A stretch of 64,000 nt of DNA from Candidatus Latescibacterota bacterium (GCA_963791045.1 CAWBQK010000015.1:96001-160000); one strand, 5' to 3'; positions 57,553-64,000 are shown, counted from the stretch's first letter. Numbers and translations are program-made. The notes: generated by a model not told the origin, from the letters alone.

Positions 57553-59096
57553 GACAGTTCTTGCACCAGATCGCGGAAGCTTCTCATGGAAACGACTTTG
57601 AAGTCCTCGCGATGGAGCCGGGGATCGTCCTGAATCTCGATCTTGAAACGGTACTGCCGTTCGATCGAGTCGAAAGACGCCCGCCGCTCCTCTTCCAAGA
57701 AGAGTGCAAGTGATGAATTGACACGAAGTTGGATCCGCTTCTCGTTGGTGCGGGAGCCGATCCGCCGAATCCACTGTTCGATTTTGTTGGCCAGCGAGTC
57801 GAAGGACAACACCTTGCCCGTCCCTTTGCAGTACGGGCATTCGTCGCTAAAAAAATGAAGCAGGCTTGGTCGGACTCGCTTACGGCTGACCTCGACAAGC
57901 CCCAGATCGCTCACGGCAAACGCCTTGGCCCGCGACTTGTCTTTGCGGAGATAGTGACGGAGTTCGGAGAGGACCTTGCGCCGGTTGGCCTCCCTCTCCA
58001 TGTCGATAAAATCGATGACGATGATCCCGCCGATGTCCCGAACCCGCAGCTGCCTTGGAATTTCCTTCGCCGCCAGCATGTTGGTTTCGAAGATGGTCTC
58101 CTCCTGATCTTTCTTCCCCACATACCGCCCCGTGTTGACGTCGACCGCCACGAGCGCTTCGGTCGGATCGATGGTTATGTAACCGCCCTTTTTGAGCCAG
58201 ATCTTCCGGTCGAGGGTTTTTTCGATTTCGCGTTCGATATTGAATTTGTCGAAAATCGGCGTCTTGTCGCGGTACAGTTTGACTCGCGAACAGAGATTGG
58301 GGCTGAACGTCTTGAGATACTGCTGCAGTATCTTGAATTCGCGTTCGTTGTCGATGAGTATCCTGTCGACGTCATCGGTCATGACATCCCGGACCATCCC
58401 GATCAGAAGACCGACTTCCTCGTGGATTCGCAAGGGGGCCGCCGCCTTTTCCGACCGCGTCTTAATCTCCTGCCAGAGTTTGTGGAGATAGTTGATGTCT
58501 CCGACAATCTTCTTGGAATCAACACCGGTGCACGCCGTTCGCGCGATGATCGCCGTGTTGGCCGGCTTGCGGCGCGCGATAAGATTCTTGAGTCGTGCGC
58601 GTTCCTGCCTCGACTCAATCTTTCTCGAAACACCGAGATAGCTCAGGCTCGGCAGGTAGACGACAAACCGTCCGGGGAGCGATATCTGGGTCGTCAACCG
58701 CGGCCCCTTGGTACCTATCGCCTCTTTGGTCACCTGGACGAGGACTTCCTGCCCCTTTTTGAGAACCTTTTCTATGGGTGTCGGAGGGGGGGCATTCTTG
58801 TCGCGGGGATCCCTGCGCCCACCCCTGCGCCGGGGTGTTTCGACGATATCGAATTCTTTGAGCTTTTCGGGCGAACCCGAAAGATCGTTGGCGTGGAGAA
58901 ATCCCGCCTTTTCATATCCGATATCCACAAACGCCGCCTGGATTCCCGGGAGAATCGCGTTGACCCGTCCGAGGTAGAGATCGCCGACGAGTCGTTTCGA
59001 CTCCTCGCGTTCGACGAGAAACTCGACGAGATCGCCGTCCTCCAATGTCGCCACCCGGATTTCGAGCGACGTCATGTTGATTATGATTTCTTTCAT
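57549..59096 (-). CDS. Ribonuclease E/G family (RNase G length)
   Basis: ATG 59096 (MKEIIIN) overlaps the upstream stop. PGIQAAFVDIG, QVTKE.IGTKG, DVNTG, IGGIIVIDFIDM, CPYCKGTG. Confidence 0.95.
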   Translation of the reverse strand: MKEIIINMTSLEIRVATLEDGDLVEFLVEREESKRLVGDLYLGRVNAILPGIQAAFVDIGYEKAGFLHANDLSGSPEKLKEFDIVETPRRRGGRRDPRDKNAPPPTPIEKVLKKGQEVLVQVTKEAIGTKGPRLTTQISLPGRFVVYLPSLSYLGVSRKIESRQERARLKNLIARRKPANTAIIARTACTGVDSKKIVGDINYLHKLWQEIKTRSEKAAAPLRIHEEVGLLIGMVRDVMTDDVDRILIDNEREFKILQQYLKTFSPNLCSRVKLYRDKTPIFDKFNIEREIEKTLDRKIWLKKGGYITIDPTEALVAVDVNTGRYVGKKDQEETIFETNMLAAKEIPRQLRVRDIGGIIVIDFIDMEREANRRKVLSELRHYLRKDKSRAKAFAVSDLGLVEVSRKRVRPSLLHFFSDECPYCKGTGKVLSFDSLANKIEQWIRRIGSRTNEKRIQLRVNSSLALFLEEERRASFDSIERQYRFKIEIQDDPRLHREDFKVVSMRSFRDLVQELS

Positions 59097-59920
59097 GTTC
59101 TTGACTCCAATGCCGCACGGCTTATCGGGGAAACCAACGCGTTCGCTCTCTTGACGTAGAGTGAACTTCTCACCACGTGTACCGGTGTCTCGAAAGAACC
59201 GGGATCCCCGGCGAAAGGCGCGAGAATATTTTCGGGAAAGAGACTCTTCCCGCCGTGCATTGTGCTGACGTATTCGATTCTGATTACGGCATCCGACTCT
59301 GGCCCGCTTGGTTTGTCGATAGATGATTCCAACATTGTTGGAGTATCGGGCGCCGCGTCCGGCTGAGCATCGTGCTTTCCGCCCGCGGCAGGAAACCGCT
59401 CGCCGAAGGCCCTGGCAAAGTCGTCGAACGACCGCACCACGATCCTCGCGTGGGGTTCCCCCGATCCATCGGATACCTCGAAATTTGGTACACCGGCTCC
59501 GCCGGAAGACGAGCCAAAAAGGTCCGCCGCGTCGACCCGGACTTCGTACCGGGCCGCTTCGACATCGGCGGCGAGTTTTCGAACCGACTCCTCGACACGC
59601 CCCGTATCCAGAACCCGAATTCCTTCGGGGAGAACGGCATTGCACCGGTCCGGCACGTCTTCGGCCGGTGTGTCAAGAATCACGTCCACGAACTCGTCGA
59701 GACCTTCCCAGCCGGTACGAAGCGACGGCCCGAAGGACATCTTCGGGTGGGGGTTGAACCCCTGCGAGAAACTGACGGGTAACCCGGCGGTGGCAAAGCA
59801 GCGCCGGAAGATCCGCAAGAGATCCCGATGCGATGTAAACCGGATCGGGCCCCGTTTCTCATACCTGATTCGCAGACGCACCATGGCTAGTTCCGACGGA
59901 CGCACCTCCAGGGCCGGCAT
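59093..59920 (-). CDS. TIGR03936 radical SAM-linked protein (DUF2344), stand-alone
   Basis: RIRYEK.G..RF.SH.DL.R.F.R....AGLP..FSQGFNPHPKMSFG, LPEGI. Start may be ATG 59884. Confidence 0.88.
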   Translation of the reverse strand: MPALEVRPSELAMVRLRIRYEKRGPIRFTSHRDLLRIFRRCFATAGLPVSFSQGFNPHPKMSFGPSLRTGWEGLDEFVDVILDTPAEDVPDRCNAVLPEGIRVLDTGRVEESVRKLAADVEAARYEVRVDAADLFGSSSGGAGVPNFEVSDGSGEPHARIVVRSFDDFARAFGERFPAAGGKHDAQPDAAPDTPTMLESSIDKPSGPESDAVIRIEYVSTMHGGKSLFPENILAPFAGDPGSFETPVHVVRSSLYVKRANALVSPISRAALESRT

Positions 59921-59992: not shown

Positions 59993-60918
59993 TTAGTTTT
60001 GCGCTGAGCCTTTTTCCAGGATGGACCTTTGCGGCGTTGTCGAGTGTGGCACTTTGAAGTCCCCGTTCGAACATCGATATCAAACGGGTGGCGAGCAGAT
60101 CCGCGGGTGCGCTTCTTTGGCACCGGCGTGCTTGGGCATATGAACGAGTTTTTTCATCGTCGATTCTCGAACTACTGAATCATCCACTACCGCGACCCGC
60201 TTGCCCCTTAGAACTCCCTTTACCGGACTGAACTTGATGCCGACGTTCGTGTCGTGCATCGACTGTTCCGGTTGGTTAAAAGTTCCACCCACATAAAGAT
60301 TTCGGATGAATCCAAGTTCGAATGAGATGCCGTGATCCTGGGAAAATCCAAGTGTGGATAAGTTGCTCGAGTCCGTAATGGCAATCACCATTTCCGCTTC
60401 CACGGGGTGATTCTTCGCGAGCGCTACTCCCAGCTGCCGGCTCATTTTATCCACGTTTTCTTCAATTACTCTTCGGTCTGGACGTGAAAAATAAATAAAC
60501 TCGAAAATGCGTTTGGCCTGCTCCGTCGATTCGGCAACGGCCGTCGACGTTATGCCTTTCTTGTCGACAACGACAAGTTTTCCTGGCCGTACATCCCTGA
60601 TGTACTCGGCTCCAATCATGACCTCCAGCCGCTTTTTCTGGCTTCTTGCTCAAAGAAGAACAACCTCGGCATCCATGGTCGCGGTGATAATCGAGCCGTT
60701 TCTTTTCATTTCCGAACGGCATTCGAACGCGTCGACGTGGATTTAGTTTTTCGCCAACGCAAACTCACCGACCCTTCGGTCTACGACCGGCGGCTGGATA
60801 TTTGTGAAACGAGGTTGCCCGGTGGTGAAGGACACAGACTCGGAAACGCGTGGAAGGCGGCGACGGAACAATTCCAAATTCCGAATACGCCGCAACATTC
60901 GCCAGTGGGCTCAACCAT
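59993..60918 (-). pseudogene. purF: Degraded amidophosphoribosyltransferase
   Basis: ATG overlaps the upstream stop: MVEPTGECCGVFGIW. Relics LHHR, NIQP..ALA, GSII..TMDAEV, IFEFIYFSRPD, DSSN, RNLYVG.TF.QP, VVDDSVVR, ICSPPV, C.NGDF. Internal deletions, frameshifts and in-frame stops. Confidence 0.9.
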
Positions 60919-61592
60919 TACTCGGTCAATTCGATTTTCTCAACGCCAAGAAAACGGAACCCCTGGTAGTTGGGGTTGAGAAGAAGTCCTCTGTCGCGCC
61001 TTTCGGTCACGACAATTTCCCTGGCGATCGCCCTGGCGTCCTCATCCGAATCGGCAGCGACTGCCAATTGCCACCACGTTCCCAGTATGTGTACCACCAC
61101 TGGAGCCGCAGAAAGCTCGTCCTCGAGCTTTCTCGAAATCTTCTCTTTCGCGGAGGTATCTATATCCTCCACGAGGATATCGGTCTTAAAGACCGACGTA
61201 TCTTTAAGGATAACCTGAATCTTTTCTTCATTGCCAATGAAATCTGGTCCGGAGCCCGCTGTAATTGACGATCTGACCTGCGCGGCAAGCTGGTGATTCT
61301 GTTCCAGCGGCGAGATTCCGTCCACGAACTCCTCTCCATCCCATGCACACCTCAGCAAATAGTTGTGTTTATTTCGATTATAGAATGTAGCCTGTGTGTT
61401 GAGCACACGCCGCAGCGTCGCAAGAGTCTTCTGGGGGTCATCGGTCTCGATAGAGAACGCGAATGAGTCCATCCGCCTCAGGCCTAGAAGCTTACGCTCA
61501 TAACCCATTTTACTGCAAAGGGTTATCATCGCCGTGTTCGCGACGAGATCGGCGCCCTTGAGCATTACATCCAGTGTCACATCGATCGTCAC
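60918..61592 (-). CDS. Tandem PurS-like protein (two PurS-fold domains in one chain)
   Basis: Overlaps the purQ stop. Domain 1 V.LDVMLK..D....A...L...GY.....R..F.IE..N...Y; domain 2 ends LLLNPNYQGFRF (cf. PurS LLANPVIEDY). Confidence 0.7.
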   Translation of the reverse strand: MTIDVTLDVMLKGADLVANTAMITLCSKMGYERKLLGLRRMDSFAFSIETDDPQKTLATLRRVLNTQATFYNRNKHNYLLRCAWDGEEFVDGISPLEQNHQLAAQVRSSITAGSGPDFIGNEEKIQVILKDTSVFKTDILVEDIDTSAKEKISRKLEDELSAAPVVVHILGTWWQLAVAADSDEDARAIAREIVVTERRDRGLLLNPNYQGFRFLGVEKIELTE

Positions 61593-62419: not shown

Positions 62420-64000
62420 CTATGCGAAAAGCGGGTTGCACTTGCCGTTGACACGGTGCGCCGAATCGATTTCGGCGACGGTCACGTTGACTTCTTCTCC
62501 GCCCCACTTTATGACGAGCGAGGCATCTTCGGTTGTTTCGCCGAGCGGCTGCCACGTTGTTCCATCCGCGGCGAGGTCCTTTGCGAAATCGTCCCAGCGG
62601 TCGGGAGCGATTTCAACGACGATGCCGCCAAACTCGCCAAAGAGATATGGCGCGGCGGCATCTCCATCGGGCACGACTCCAGTGAGATCAATCAGACACC
62701 CGCGCGGAGACGGCTCGCCGGCGATCATCATTTCTCCGAGTGTGACGGTAAGTCCGCCGTGGCTGATGTCGTGCGCGGCAAGGACGGCGCCGTTCGCGAC
62801 CCCGTCGATGAGCGATCGGATCATCGACGCTTCGCGGTCGAGATCGGGGGCGGGCGCATCGTACACGGCGTCCGGCATGAACCGGCGCGCGTATTTGCTT
62901 CCACCCAGACGGTCGTGGAGTTCACCGAGCAAGACCAGTTTTGATCCGGCGCGTTTGAACCCCATGTTCTTGCTCACACTGACGTCGTCAATTCGTCCCG
63001 CCGCGGCCACAATCGGCGTGGGAGCGATTGGTTGTCCGTTTTCGCTCTGGTTGTAGAACGAGACATTGCCCGACACAACGGGGATACCGTGATCGCCGTC
63101 GCGCGAAAGTTTAAGTCCTCTGCACGCGTCGCCGATTCCGCGCACGCCTTCGGAGAATTCCCAGAACACCTCTGGCTGTTCGGGATCTCCGTAGTTCAAA
63201 CAATCCGTGATCGCGAGAGTGCGACCGCCCACGCAGGCGACGTTTCTCACCGCTTCACACACCGACCACACACCACCGAGATACGGATCGACCGCCCCGA
63301 TTGCCGAGTCGCCACCAATACCCGCGGCGACACCAAAATTCTCGCCCCTCATAAAAACAGCGACGGCGGCGTCGGCTTCACCCGGCCGGAGGACGGCCCG
63401 CCCCTGGACTTCACAATCGTAGTGCCGGAAGAGTATCGACTTGTCCGACACGTTGTACGACGAGAGAAGCTCGAGTAACGCGTCTCGCACCGGCGGCGCA
63501 ACGCTAGTGTCCGGTTTGTCCGCGGGCTTTTTCGCCCTGGGCGCGGACTCGCGGTCGTACTCGATTCCCGTGGTGATAACGTCGACATGCGCGTCACATA
63601 CGACTTCCGACCCGCGGGTCAGCTTGAATCTCAGGTCGTCGGTGACGCGACCGATCACGAAGGCGCCCGCGCCCGCATAAATGTGCGGCAAGTCAAAATC
63701 TTCGTTGTAAATCTTTAAGACGGCAGGTGTGAAATCAGTGGGCACAAACAGCGCGTACCGTTCCTGGGTTTCCGAACAGGCGATAACCTCGGACAGGAGA
63801 GAATCCGACGACTTGTGTACATCATCGAGGTTGAGTGTCGCGCCCACACCGCCGGCCTGAGCCATTTCCGACACCGCGCAGGCGATCCCGCCGGCGCCGA
63901 GATCCTTGAAACCGATCGGAATACCGAGCCTCTTTGTCTCGGCAAGAACCACCTTGGTCGCTTCGGCAAGCACCCGTTTGAGGAACGGGTCGGGCACCTG
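62420..64000 (-). CDS. purL: FGAM synthase small PurL (5' part outside the window)
   Basis: DLGAGGI.CA.SEMA, SETQER, EAVRNVACVG, DCLNYGDPE, VSGNVSFYN, AHDISHGGL, LFGE. Confidence 0.96.
   Translation of the reverse strand, partial: QVPDPFLKRVLAEATKVVLAETKRLGIPIGFKDLGAGGIACAVSEMAQAGGVGATLNLDDVHKSSDSLLSEVIACSETQERYALFVPTDFTPAVLKIYNEDFDLPHIYAGAGAFVIGRVTDDLRFKLTRGSEVVCDAHVDVITTGIEYDRESAPRAKKPADKPDTSVAPPVRDALLELLSSYNVSDKSILFRHYDCEVQGRAVLRPGEADAAVAVFMRGENFGVAAGIGGDSAIGAVDPYLGGVWSVCEAVRNVACVGGRTLAITDCLNYGDPEQPEVFWEFSEGVRGIGDACRGLKLSRDGDHGIPVVSGNVSFYNQSENGQPIAPTPIVAAAGRIDDVSVSKNMGFKRAGSKLVLLGELHDRLGGSKYARRFMPDAVYDAPAPDLDREASMIRSLIDGVANGAVLAAHDISHGGLTVTLGEMMIAGEPSPRGCLIDLTGVVPDGDAAAPYLFGEFGGIVVEIAPDRWDDFAKDLAADGTTWQPLGETTEDASLVIKWGGEEVNVTVAEIDSAHRVNGKCNPLFA

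Follow-up and report, generated by a model that had tools for sequence, protein, structure and literature searches.

A tandem PurS-like protein encoded behind purQ in a Candidatus Latescibacterota genome as a candidate covalent PurS dimer of small-type FGAM synthase

A stretch of 64,000 nucleotides (nt) from a Candidatus Latescibacterota bacterium (GCA_963791045.1, CAWBQK010000015.1:96001-160000; hereafter the window, with positions counted from its first letter) encodes, directly behind purQ, a protein of 224 amino acids (aa) which consists of two PurS-like halves and is termed PurSS here. It is highly probable that PurSS is a PurS dimer whose halves were fused and have diverged asymmetrically, and that it serves a formylglycinamidine ribonucleotide (FGAM) synthase of PurL, PurQ and PurSS in a 1:1:1 ratio. 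As a covalently linked dimer it would replace the PurS homodimer in the small-type form of this enzyme, the formylglycinamide ribonucleotide (FGAR) amidotransferase of the fourth step of purine synthesis. A preliminary description, made from the sequence alone, had proposed such a dimer alongside separate PurQ and PurL proteins, and the proposal is supported by the predicted fold, by the genomic context and by the absence of a canonical purS gene.

Predicted fold and sequence family

The AlphaFold2 (AF2) model of the whole protein, built on a 46-sequence alignment, reached a mean predicted local distance difference test score (pLDDT) of 85.0 and a predicted template modelling score (pTM) of 0.81. 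It comprises two strand-helix-hairpin-helix-strand units (residues 2-84 and 133-219), which are connected by an extra strand and two helices. In an exhaustive VIA-align structure search against 48,161 representative PDB chains, the first rank was taken by the N-terminal domain of large PurL from Salmonella (4lgy_A; Z 9.2, root-mean-square deviation (rmsd) 3.5, 138 aligned residues), with the alignment spanning model residues 1-215 against chain residues -1 to 142 and thus both halves. The N-terminal domain of human PFAS followed at the second rank (9n9w_A; Z 9.1, 149 aligned residues), and the PurS proteins of S. tokodaii (2zw2_B), M. jannaschii (2yx5_A) and T. maritima (1vq3_A) occupied ranks three to five, all of them matching residues 126-221 (Z 7.2, 6.1 and 5.8; rmsd 2.0-2.2 over 79-83 residues). 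A model of the N-half alone (residues 1-94, 33-sequence phylum-wide alignment, pLDDT 94.4) retrieved the same PurS structures at its first three ranks (2zw2_B, 1vq3_A and 2yx5_A; Z 8.5, 8.2 and 8.2), with 79-82 of about 85 residues aligned at an rmsd of 1.9-2.5. These models support a PurS fold for both halves, and in the model of the whole protein the two units pack as a pseudo-dimer, the dimer being intramolecular. A prediction of the complex between PurSS and PurL (residues 17-791) gave no answer (score 0.01, mark 0.32) and speaks neither for nor against binding.

The two halves are also distinguished by their conservation. In the 46-sequence alignment, the signature block F70-Y-N-R-x-K-H76 ends the N-half and the block G202-L-L-L-N-P-N-Y-Q210 ends the C-half. 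The two-half PurS pattern with closing motifs, which the preliminary description had read from the protein, is therefore real, and its view of both halves as PurS-like and its comparison with the N-terminal domain of large PurL agree with the structural ranking; only the linker, put there at about 55 aa, had to be corrected to about 40 aa.

A word-indexed homology search with PurSS yielded 142 relatives among 1705 candidates. Within the best 120 of these relatives nearly all proteins measured 210-240 aa, precomputed Pfam domains were absent throughout, and the source name was in each case 'hypothetical protein', from metagenome-assembled genomes (MAGs) of the Latescibacterota/Krumholzibacteria type; that automated pipelines would call the protein hypothetical had been expected beforehand. 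The window protein stays below the gathering score of PF02700, the Pfam family of PurS (22.2 bits). PF02700 was matched below threshold, and in register, in five of 32 diverse members from the phylum (E 4.4e-4 to 0.12; four times on the C-half and once on the N-half); every other Pfam family was matched by at most two of the 32. In a search of 177,635 PDB sequences with a profile of the C-half, T. maritima PurS came first in a full-length alignment (E 0.044 and 0.073), and Thermus PurS followed at E 1.4.

The connection to recognised PurS proteins becomes continuous in the wider family. An exhaustive HMMER search with a 67-sequence family profile against 1.84 billion cluster representatives returned 516 proteins at E ≤ 0.001, of which 289 reached E ≤ 1e-10 and 47 reached E ≤ 1e-30. 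The best 150 of the 516 were mostly 160-245 aa long, their N- and C-parts each matching the corresponding part of the profile. From the short two-domain forms, 69 representatives were scanned (159-195 aa; E 1.9e-39 to 1e-18 to the family profile). PF02700 was matched at E ≤ 0.1 in 42 of them, 22 pass the 22.2-bit cut-off, and two proteins, P0147 (49.6 bits) and P0218 (47.2 bits), match it in two stretches each. PF18076 (FGAR-AT_N) was matched once in 76 proteins scanned, at E 0.064. Some databases already annotate short tandem forms as PurS; the JGI/IMG name 'FGAM synthase PurS component' stands on 3 of the 16 cluster members listed.

These short tandem PurS proteins (about 160-190 aa, from metagenomes) share with PurSS co-linear profile matches (E down to 2.5e-39) and half-specific motifs, FVNPNKH and GLLxNPHxQ, which correspond to those of PurSS. 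They differ in that their linkers comprise only about 15-25 aa and that many of them are recognised by Pfam, whereas the window lineage has a longer helical linker and remains undetected. Judged from these comparisons, PurSS belongs to a tandem-PurS family, and its own lineage has drifted below Pfam detection and gained the longer linker.

Linker length differs between lineages, as other relatives bear low-complexity insertions at this place. Examples are a Pro/Gly/Ala-rich insertion in a protein of 263 aa (L022:3123-3911), a repeated 'PDKDTAGHKVP'-like unit in P0065 (285 aa) and a further insertion in P0138 (268 aa). In family f6 of the phylum (L027-L029 and L038-L040; about 190-200 aa) the C-half is devoid of the first PurS helix and the inter-half region is reshaped, which makes these versions more asymmetric than the window protein. 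In one relative (L020; G196:C1, about 405796-406408) the halves lie in different frames, by a frameshift or a true split, and the frame of the N-half continues into purF. The only clear fusion among the best 150 of the 516 representatives is P0177 (300 aa), a short tandem PurS which carries a further domain of about 125 aa at its C-terminus.

Distribution and genomic context

A search of 201 genomes of this uncultured phylum (Krumholzibacteriota/Latescibacteria-type MAGs) recovered PurSS in 178, with 119 of the 125 high-quality genomes and 78 of 81 genera having it, and several of the misses fall in one divergent genus. As the protein is conserved over its full length across these genomes, the open reading frame is more than a chance frame. 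Named records with the long form come from Candidatus Latescibacterota and Krumholzibacteriia MAGs (26 loci), and look-alikes proposed by a language model, which are unverified leads only, point to Krumholzibacteriota and Eiseniibacteriota, and to Armatimonadota for the short forms. The tandem architecture is thus not peculiar to this window; it is phylum-wide, with shorter relatives elsewhere.

No stand-alone purS was found in the 201 phylum genomes. In the genome of the window, which is 80.9% complete, PF02700 had no match at E ≤ 10, and the same search recovered PurS in 12 of 14 control genomes. Across the phylum, PF02700 matches at E ≤ 0.01 occurred in 5 of the 201 genomes, of which only one attains the cut-off. 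Three of the five (G039, G172 and G096) lie within the C-half of the tandem gene itself. The matches in G115 and G109 were rejected as purS, as they are located inside a vWA/TPR-type membrane protein. The search for another purS, which the preliminary description had called for, therefore came out empty in this genome and in the whole phylum.

The gene (Table 1) overlaps purQ by 4 nt, which hold its GTG start codon (61592-61590) and the TGA stop codon of purQ (61591-61589), and a purine-rich AAAGGGG stretch lies about 10 nt upstream of the GTG. The deposited gene call (P0002, 215 aa) begins at Met10. The GTG start is preferred here because residues 1-9, which form the first strand, are conserved in homologues. 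On the same strand the order is purB-purL-purQ-PurSS, as in the relatives read, and it is unlike the order purS-purQ-purL of Bacillus. In the metagenome scan for short forms, which used an alignment of 10 closer sequences, 77 loci were recovered, and 52 of them had more than 900 nt upstream; purQ lies directly upstream on the same strand in 29 of these 52, and several loci (L144, L147 and L148) show the order purB-purL-purQ-PurSS-purF. Five loci of short forms without purQ were scanned, and one of them (L140) has a PurM-like gene directly downstream, the other neighbours being unrelated.

Table 1. Coordinates of the tandem gene, its parts and its neighbours in the window
Feature	Position	Strand	Remarks
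Tandem PurS (PurSS) gene	60918..61592	minus	uninterrupted frame, 224 aa plus stop, GTG start
N-half, residues 1-92	61317..61592	minus	predicted PurS-fold domain plus extra beta-hairpin strand (87-92)
N-half motifs	LKGxDLVAxTA (residues 11-21); FYNRNKH (residues 70-76, nt 61365-61385)	minus	invariant residues in alignments
Linker, residues 93-132	61197..61316	minus	two predicted helices (95-112, 122-131); low confidence at 114-128
C-half, residues 133-224	60921..61196	minus	predicted PurS-fold domain; W174, GLLLNPNYQ (residues 202-210, nt 60963-60989)
GTGA overlap, PurSS start / purQ stop	61589..61592	minus	putative translational coupling, read from the sequence
purQ, glutaminase subunit, 274 aa	61589..62413	minus	TIGR01737 196.2 bits (cut-off 177.8); PF13507 E 2.7e-44
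purL, small type, cut by the window end	62420..64000	minus	full gene 791 aa, reaching contig position C15:160795
purF remnant (pseudogene)	60062..60826	minus	TIGR01134 150.7 bits (cut-off 350), profile positions 201-370 only

The genes purL, purQ and PurSS form three separate open reading frames in the window, and the first two encode proteins of the small type. The full 791-aa PurL passes both small-PurL equivalogs (NF002290, 682.8 bits against a cut-off of 648; TIGR01736, 667 bits against 525.75), and its residues 31-781 align with positions 1-716 of the small-PurL profile, which leaves only 30 extra N-terminal residues. The scores on the large-PurL models are far lower (166 bits where 783 are required and 94.5 bits where 1123 are required), and this genome yielded no large PurL. 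A fused form of PurSS with PurQ or PurL was not supported among the phylum loci read. Candidate fusions, open frames of 500-1385 aa, were rejected as stop-free, GC-rich read-through across separate genes. With regard to the locus, the preliminary description was accurate on the 224-aa frame coupled to purQ, as well as on the separate state of PurQ and PurL. Its placement of the protein in a purL-purQ-X-purF slot holds for the purL-purQ part; the purF part is a truncated remnant here, though intact in relatives.

This purF remnant sits between the PurSS gene and a DUF2344-like frame (59093-59920). Roughly 80 codons at its start, and with them the catalytic N-terminus, are gone. What is left is interrupted by in-frame stops, has lost an internal segment and shifts frame after '...SPPV'; it retains 49% identity to the PurF of locus L056 over residues 83-392. 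An intact purF of 467-476 aa occupies the slot in relatives L056 and L058 and is also intact in L144, and two further loci, L049 (G079) and L073, have no purF-sized frame downstream of PurSS. The best other purF copy of the genome (G000 C9:200081-201494) spans two frames with a single frameshift near 200600, either real or an assembly error, and a second, more distant purF-like gene is found at C9:267997-269382 (173.8 bits). Two studies, with three runs of metatranscriptome libraries between them, contribute short contigs (151-252 nt, 1-3 mismatches) that map to positions 60737-61164. They are no more than a weak hint at transcription of the 3′ part of PurSS and of the purF remnant, as RNA libraries can carry DNA and the fragments are very small; the missing coverage of the 5′ part carries no weight.

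In this MAG, purM went undetected, with a best TIGR00878 match of 45.4 bits and an empty tblastn search with the PurM-like protein of L140. Within the order, 34 of 36 genomes carry purM (33 of them above the cut-off), so the clade makes purines de novo, and the missing gene is attributed to assembly incompleteness.

Comparison with known systems and alternative explanations

According to the available parts of three publications (PMC3815217, PMC3261824 and PMC7124931), PurS forms homodimers and is the structural counterpart of the large-PurL N-terminal domain, and homologues work poorly without it. Each half of PurSS shares the predicted fold of PurS (PF02700; the homodimeric subunit of about 80 aa in PurL-PurQ-PurS2; 1VQ3, 3D54, 2YX5 and 2ZW2), the closing motif (LL)xNPxxx stands at the same place, and the linkage to purQ and purL is likewise shared, with PurSS being the only PurS-like gene of its genome. 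In contrast to the two identical, Pfam-recognised chains of a PurS dimer, PurSS is a single chain of two domains that have diverged from PurS and from each other, joined by a helical linker and failing Pfam. The implied stoichiometry of PurL, PurQ and adaptor is 1:1:2 with PurS and would be 1:1:1 with PurSS.

If PurS and the large-PurL N-terminal domain are taken as a guide, PurSS would act as a non-catalytic adaptor which holds the PurQ glutaminase on the PurL synthetase, probably in a complex of one copy of each protein. Ammonia would be channelled, and the glutaminase and synthetase activities coupled, via this adaptor. Fusion may have let the halves specialise for the two non-equivalent positions that the protomers of a PurS dimer take in the complex. 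Because the halves are no longer identical, each could fix a conserved surface of its own, LKGxDLVAxTA and FYNRNKH in the N-half, W174 and GLLLNPNYQ in the C-half. Such half-specific conservation fits two different environments of the PurS protomers in the complex.

Several observations weigh against reading PurSS as a fused PurS dimer. The window protein matches no Pfam or NCBIfam model at E ≤ 1, the profiles of the whole length and of the N-half retrieve no PurS among the PDB sequences, and the N-half resembles the C-half only weakly, if in register (hhalign E 0.001, probability 21%). With regard to structure, a Foldseek search against the PDB returned nothing at E ≤ 0.001 and human PFAS only at rank 16 (probability 0.60), and VIA-align itself warns that Z scores of about 7-9 are attainable by unrelated models. 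These Z scores are still weighty because the few FGAM-synthase chains among 48,161 take the top places in two independent models. With regard to context, 23 of the 52 metagenome loci have a short form without purQ beside it, and a complete purine pathway is not demonstrable in an 80.9% complete MAG with a broken purF and no detectable purM.

A fission from large PurL, in which the N-terminal domain of a single-chain FGAM synthase would have been split off as a gene of its own, appears quite improbable. This N-terminal domain (PF18076; Salmonella 4LGY, human 9N9W), which is regarded in the field as the equivalent of a PurS dimer, is a single-chain pair of PurS-like units like PurSS. It is, however, fused to synthetase and glutaminase, while PurSS is free-standing, and it comprises about 140 aa compared to 224 aa. 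Large-PurL N-domains outrank single PurS chains on the whole model (Z 9.2 and 9.1 against 7.2), as a fission would have it, but a two-domain query is expected to favour a two-domain target, so that the structural ranking does not discriminate between fission and fusion. PF18076 does not match the window protein, and hhalign comparisons with the E. coli large-PurL N-domain (E 0.79 and 0.094) were not significant. The same applies to a shallow enterobacterial N-domain alignment (E 0.18 and 0.0082), where the better value, a weak alignment of the short-form profile, in plausible register, with the second half of the domain (probability 4.8%), speaks for a fission. These large-PurL profiles make for a weak comparison because the best 120 rows for deepening them were Enterobacteriaceae only, with at least 82% identity. 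Against a fission stand the PurL and PurQ of the locus, which pass the small-subunit equivalogs and score far lower on the large-PurL models, and the relatives of PurSS, of which 22 of 69 lie above the Pfam PurS cut-off, with PF18076 seen once in 76. Moreover, the PurSS gene follows purQ instead of preceding purL.

It is very improbable that PurSS is a PurS-fold protein recruited to another role, for example to regulate the pur operon or to serve it as a small-molecule-binding adaptor, with PurS being dispensable or otherwise supplied. A sequence beyond Pfam detection, a long lineage-specific helical linker and the separation of many short forms from purQ would all agree with recruitment, and the fold falls within the common two-layer alpha/beta sandwich class, which gives many matches at Z 4-5. 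On the other hand, no other purS was found in the 201 genomes, small PurL and PurQ are retained, and PurS is reported to be necessary together with small PurL in B. subtilis (PMC3261824, as far as its accessible part goes). The tight coupling to purQ, the position in the pur cluster across the phylum and the continuous sequence bridge to bona fide PF02700 members likewise argue against recruitment. A decaying or misassembled gene without function, either two adjacent purS genes read through or a remnant like the purF beside it, is already contradicted by the conservation data and hardly credible: the neighbouring pseudogene and the relative with its halves in different frames (G196, L020) are outweighed by the uninterrupted frame in the window, by the invariant residues of each half, by the confident AF2 models and by the scarcity of stops, which occur in 4 of the 150 match rows listed (G035, G130, G134 and G076) and in G035 and G130 are the frame's own terminal stop.

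Implications for FGAM synthase evolution and genome annotation

With PurSS read as a fused and diverged PurS dimer, the question arises where it stands between the small and the large systems. A comparable case is mdPurL of some methanogens, in which, as the accessible part of Brown et al. (2011, PMC3261824) describes, PurL carries at its N-terminus a fused PurS-like region of about 200 aa. In mdPurL this region replaces a separate purS and PurQ stays separate; PurSS is likewise another organisational step between small and large systems. In PurSS, however, the pair is encoded by a gene of its own and PurL has no such extension. The preliminary description had called the protein a possible intermediate between small-PurL and large-PurL synthases. 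This holds for the architecture only. A simple route to an N-terminal PurL fusion is not suggested by the gene order, and PurL and PurQ are ordinary small-type proteins. It is rather unlikely that the PurSS family is a surviving stage on the way to the single-chain enzyme, by duplication and fusion of PurS, then fusion with PurL as in mdPurL and then with PurQ. If this were true, the N-terminal domain of large PurL, including that of human PFAS, would descend from a free-standing tandem PurS and not from two separate fusions.

A synthetic 'PurSS' concatenation has been made for aligning small and large systems (accessible part of PMC3815217). A natural tandem PurS was not described in the full-text literature searched, subscription-journal papers and supplements being outside the reach of these searches. 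The interest of PurSS lies in enzyme evolution and in the annotation of MAGs rather than in new chemistry. Since the phylum seems to be devoid of PurS and the replacement is called hypothetical, reconstructions from MAGs could wrongly score FGAM synthase, and with it de novo purine synthesis, as incomplete. With a single-chain adaptor the stoichiometry is set, and reconstitution and structural work on the small-type complex could become easier. As a natural, free-standing protein with half-specific conservation, PurSS may reveal the surfaces in which the roles of the two PurS protomers differ, and it makes the order of the fusion events testable by phylogeny and reconstitution.

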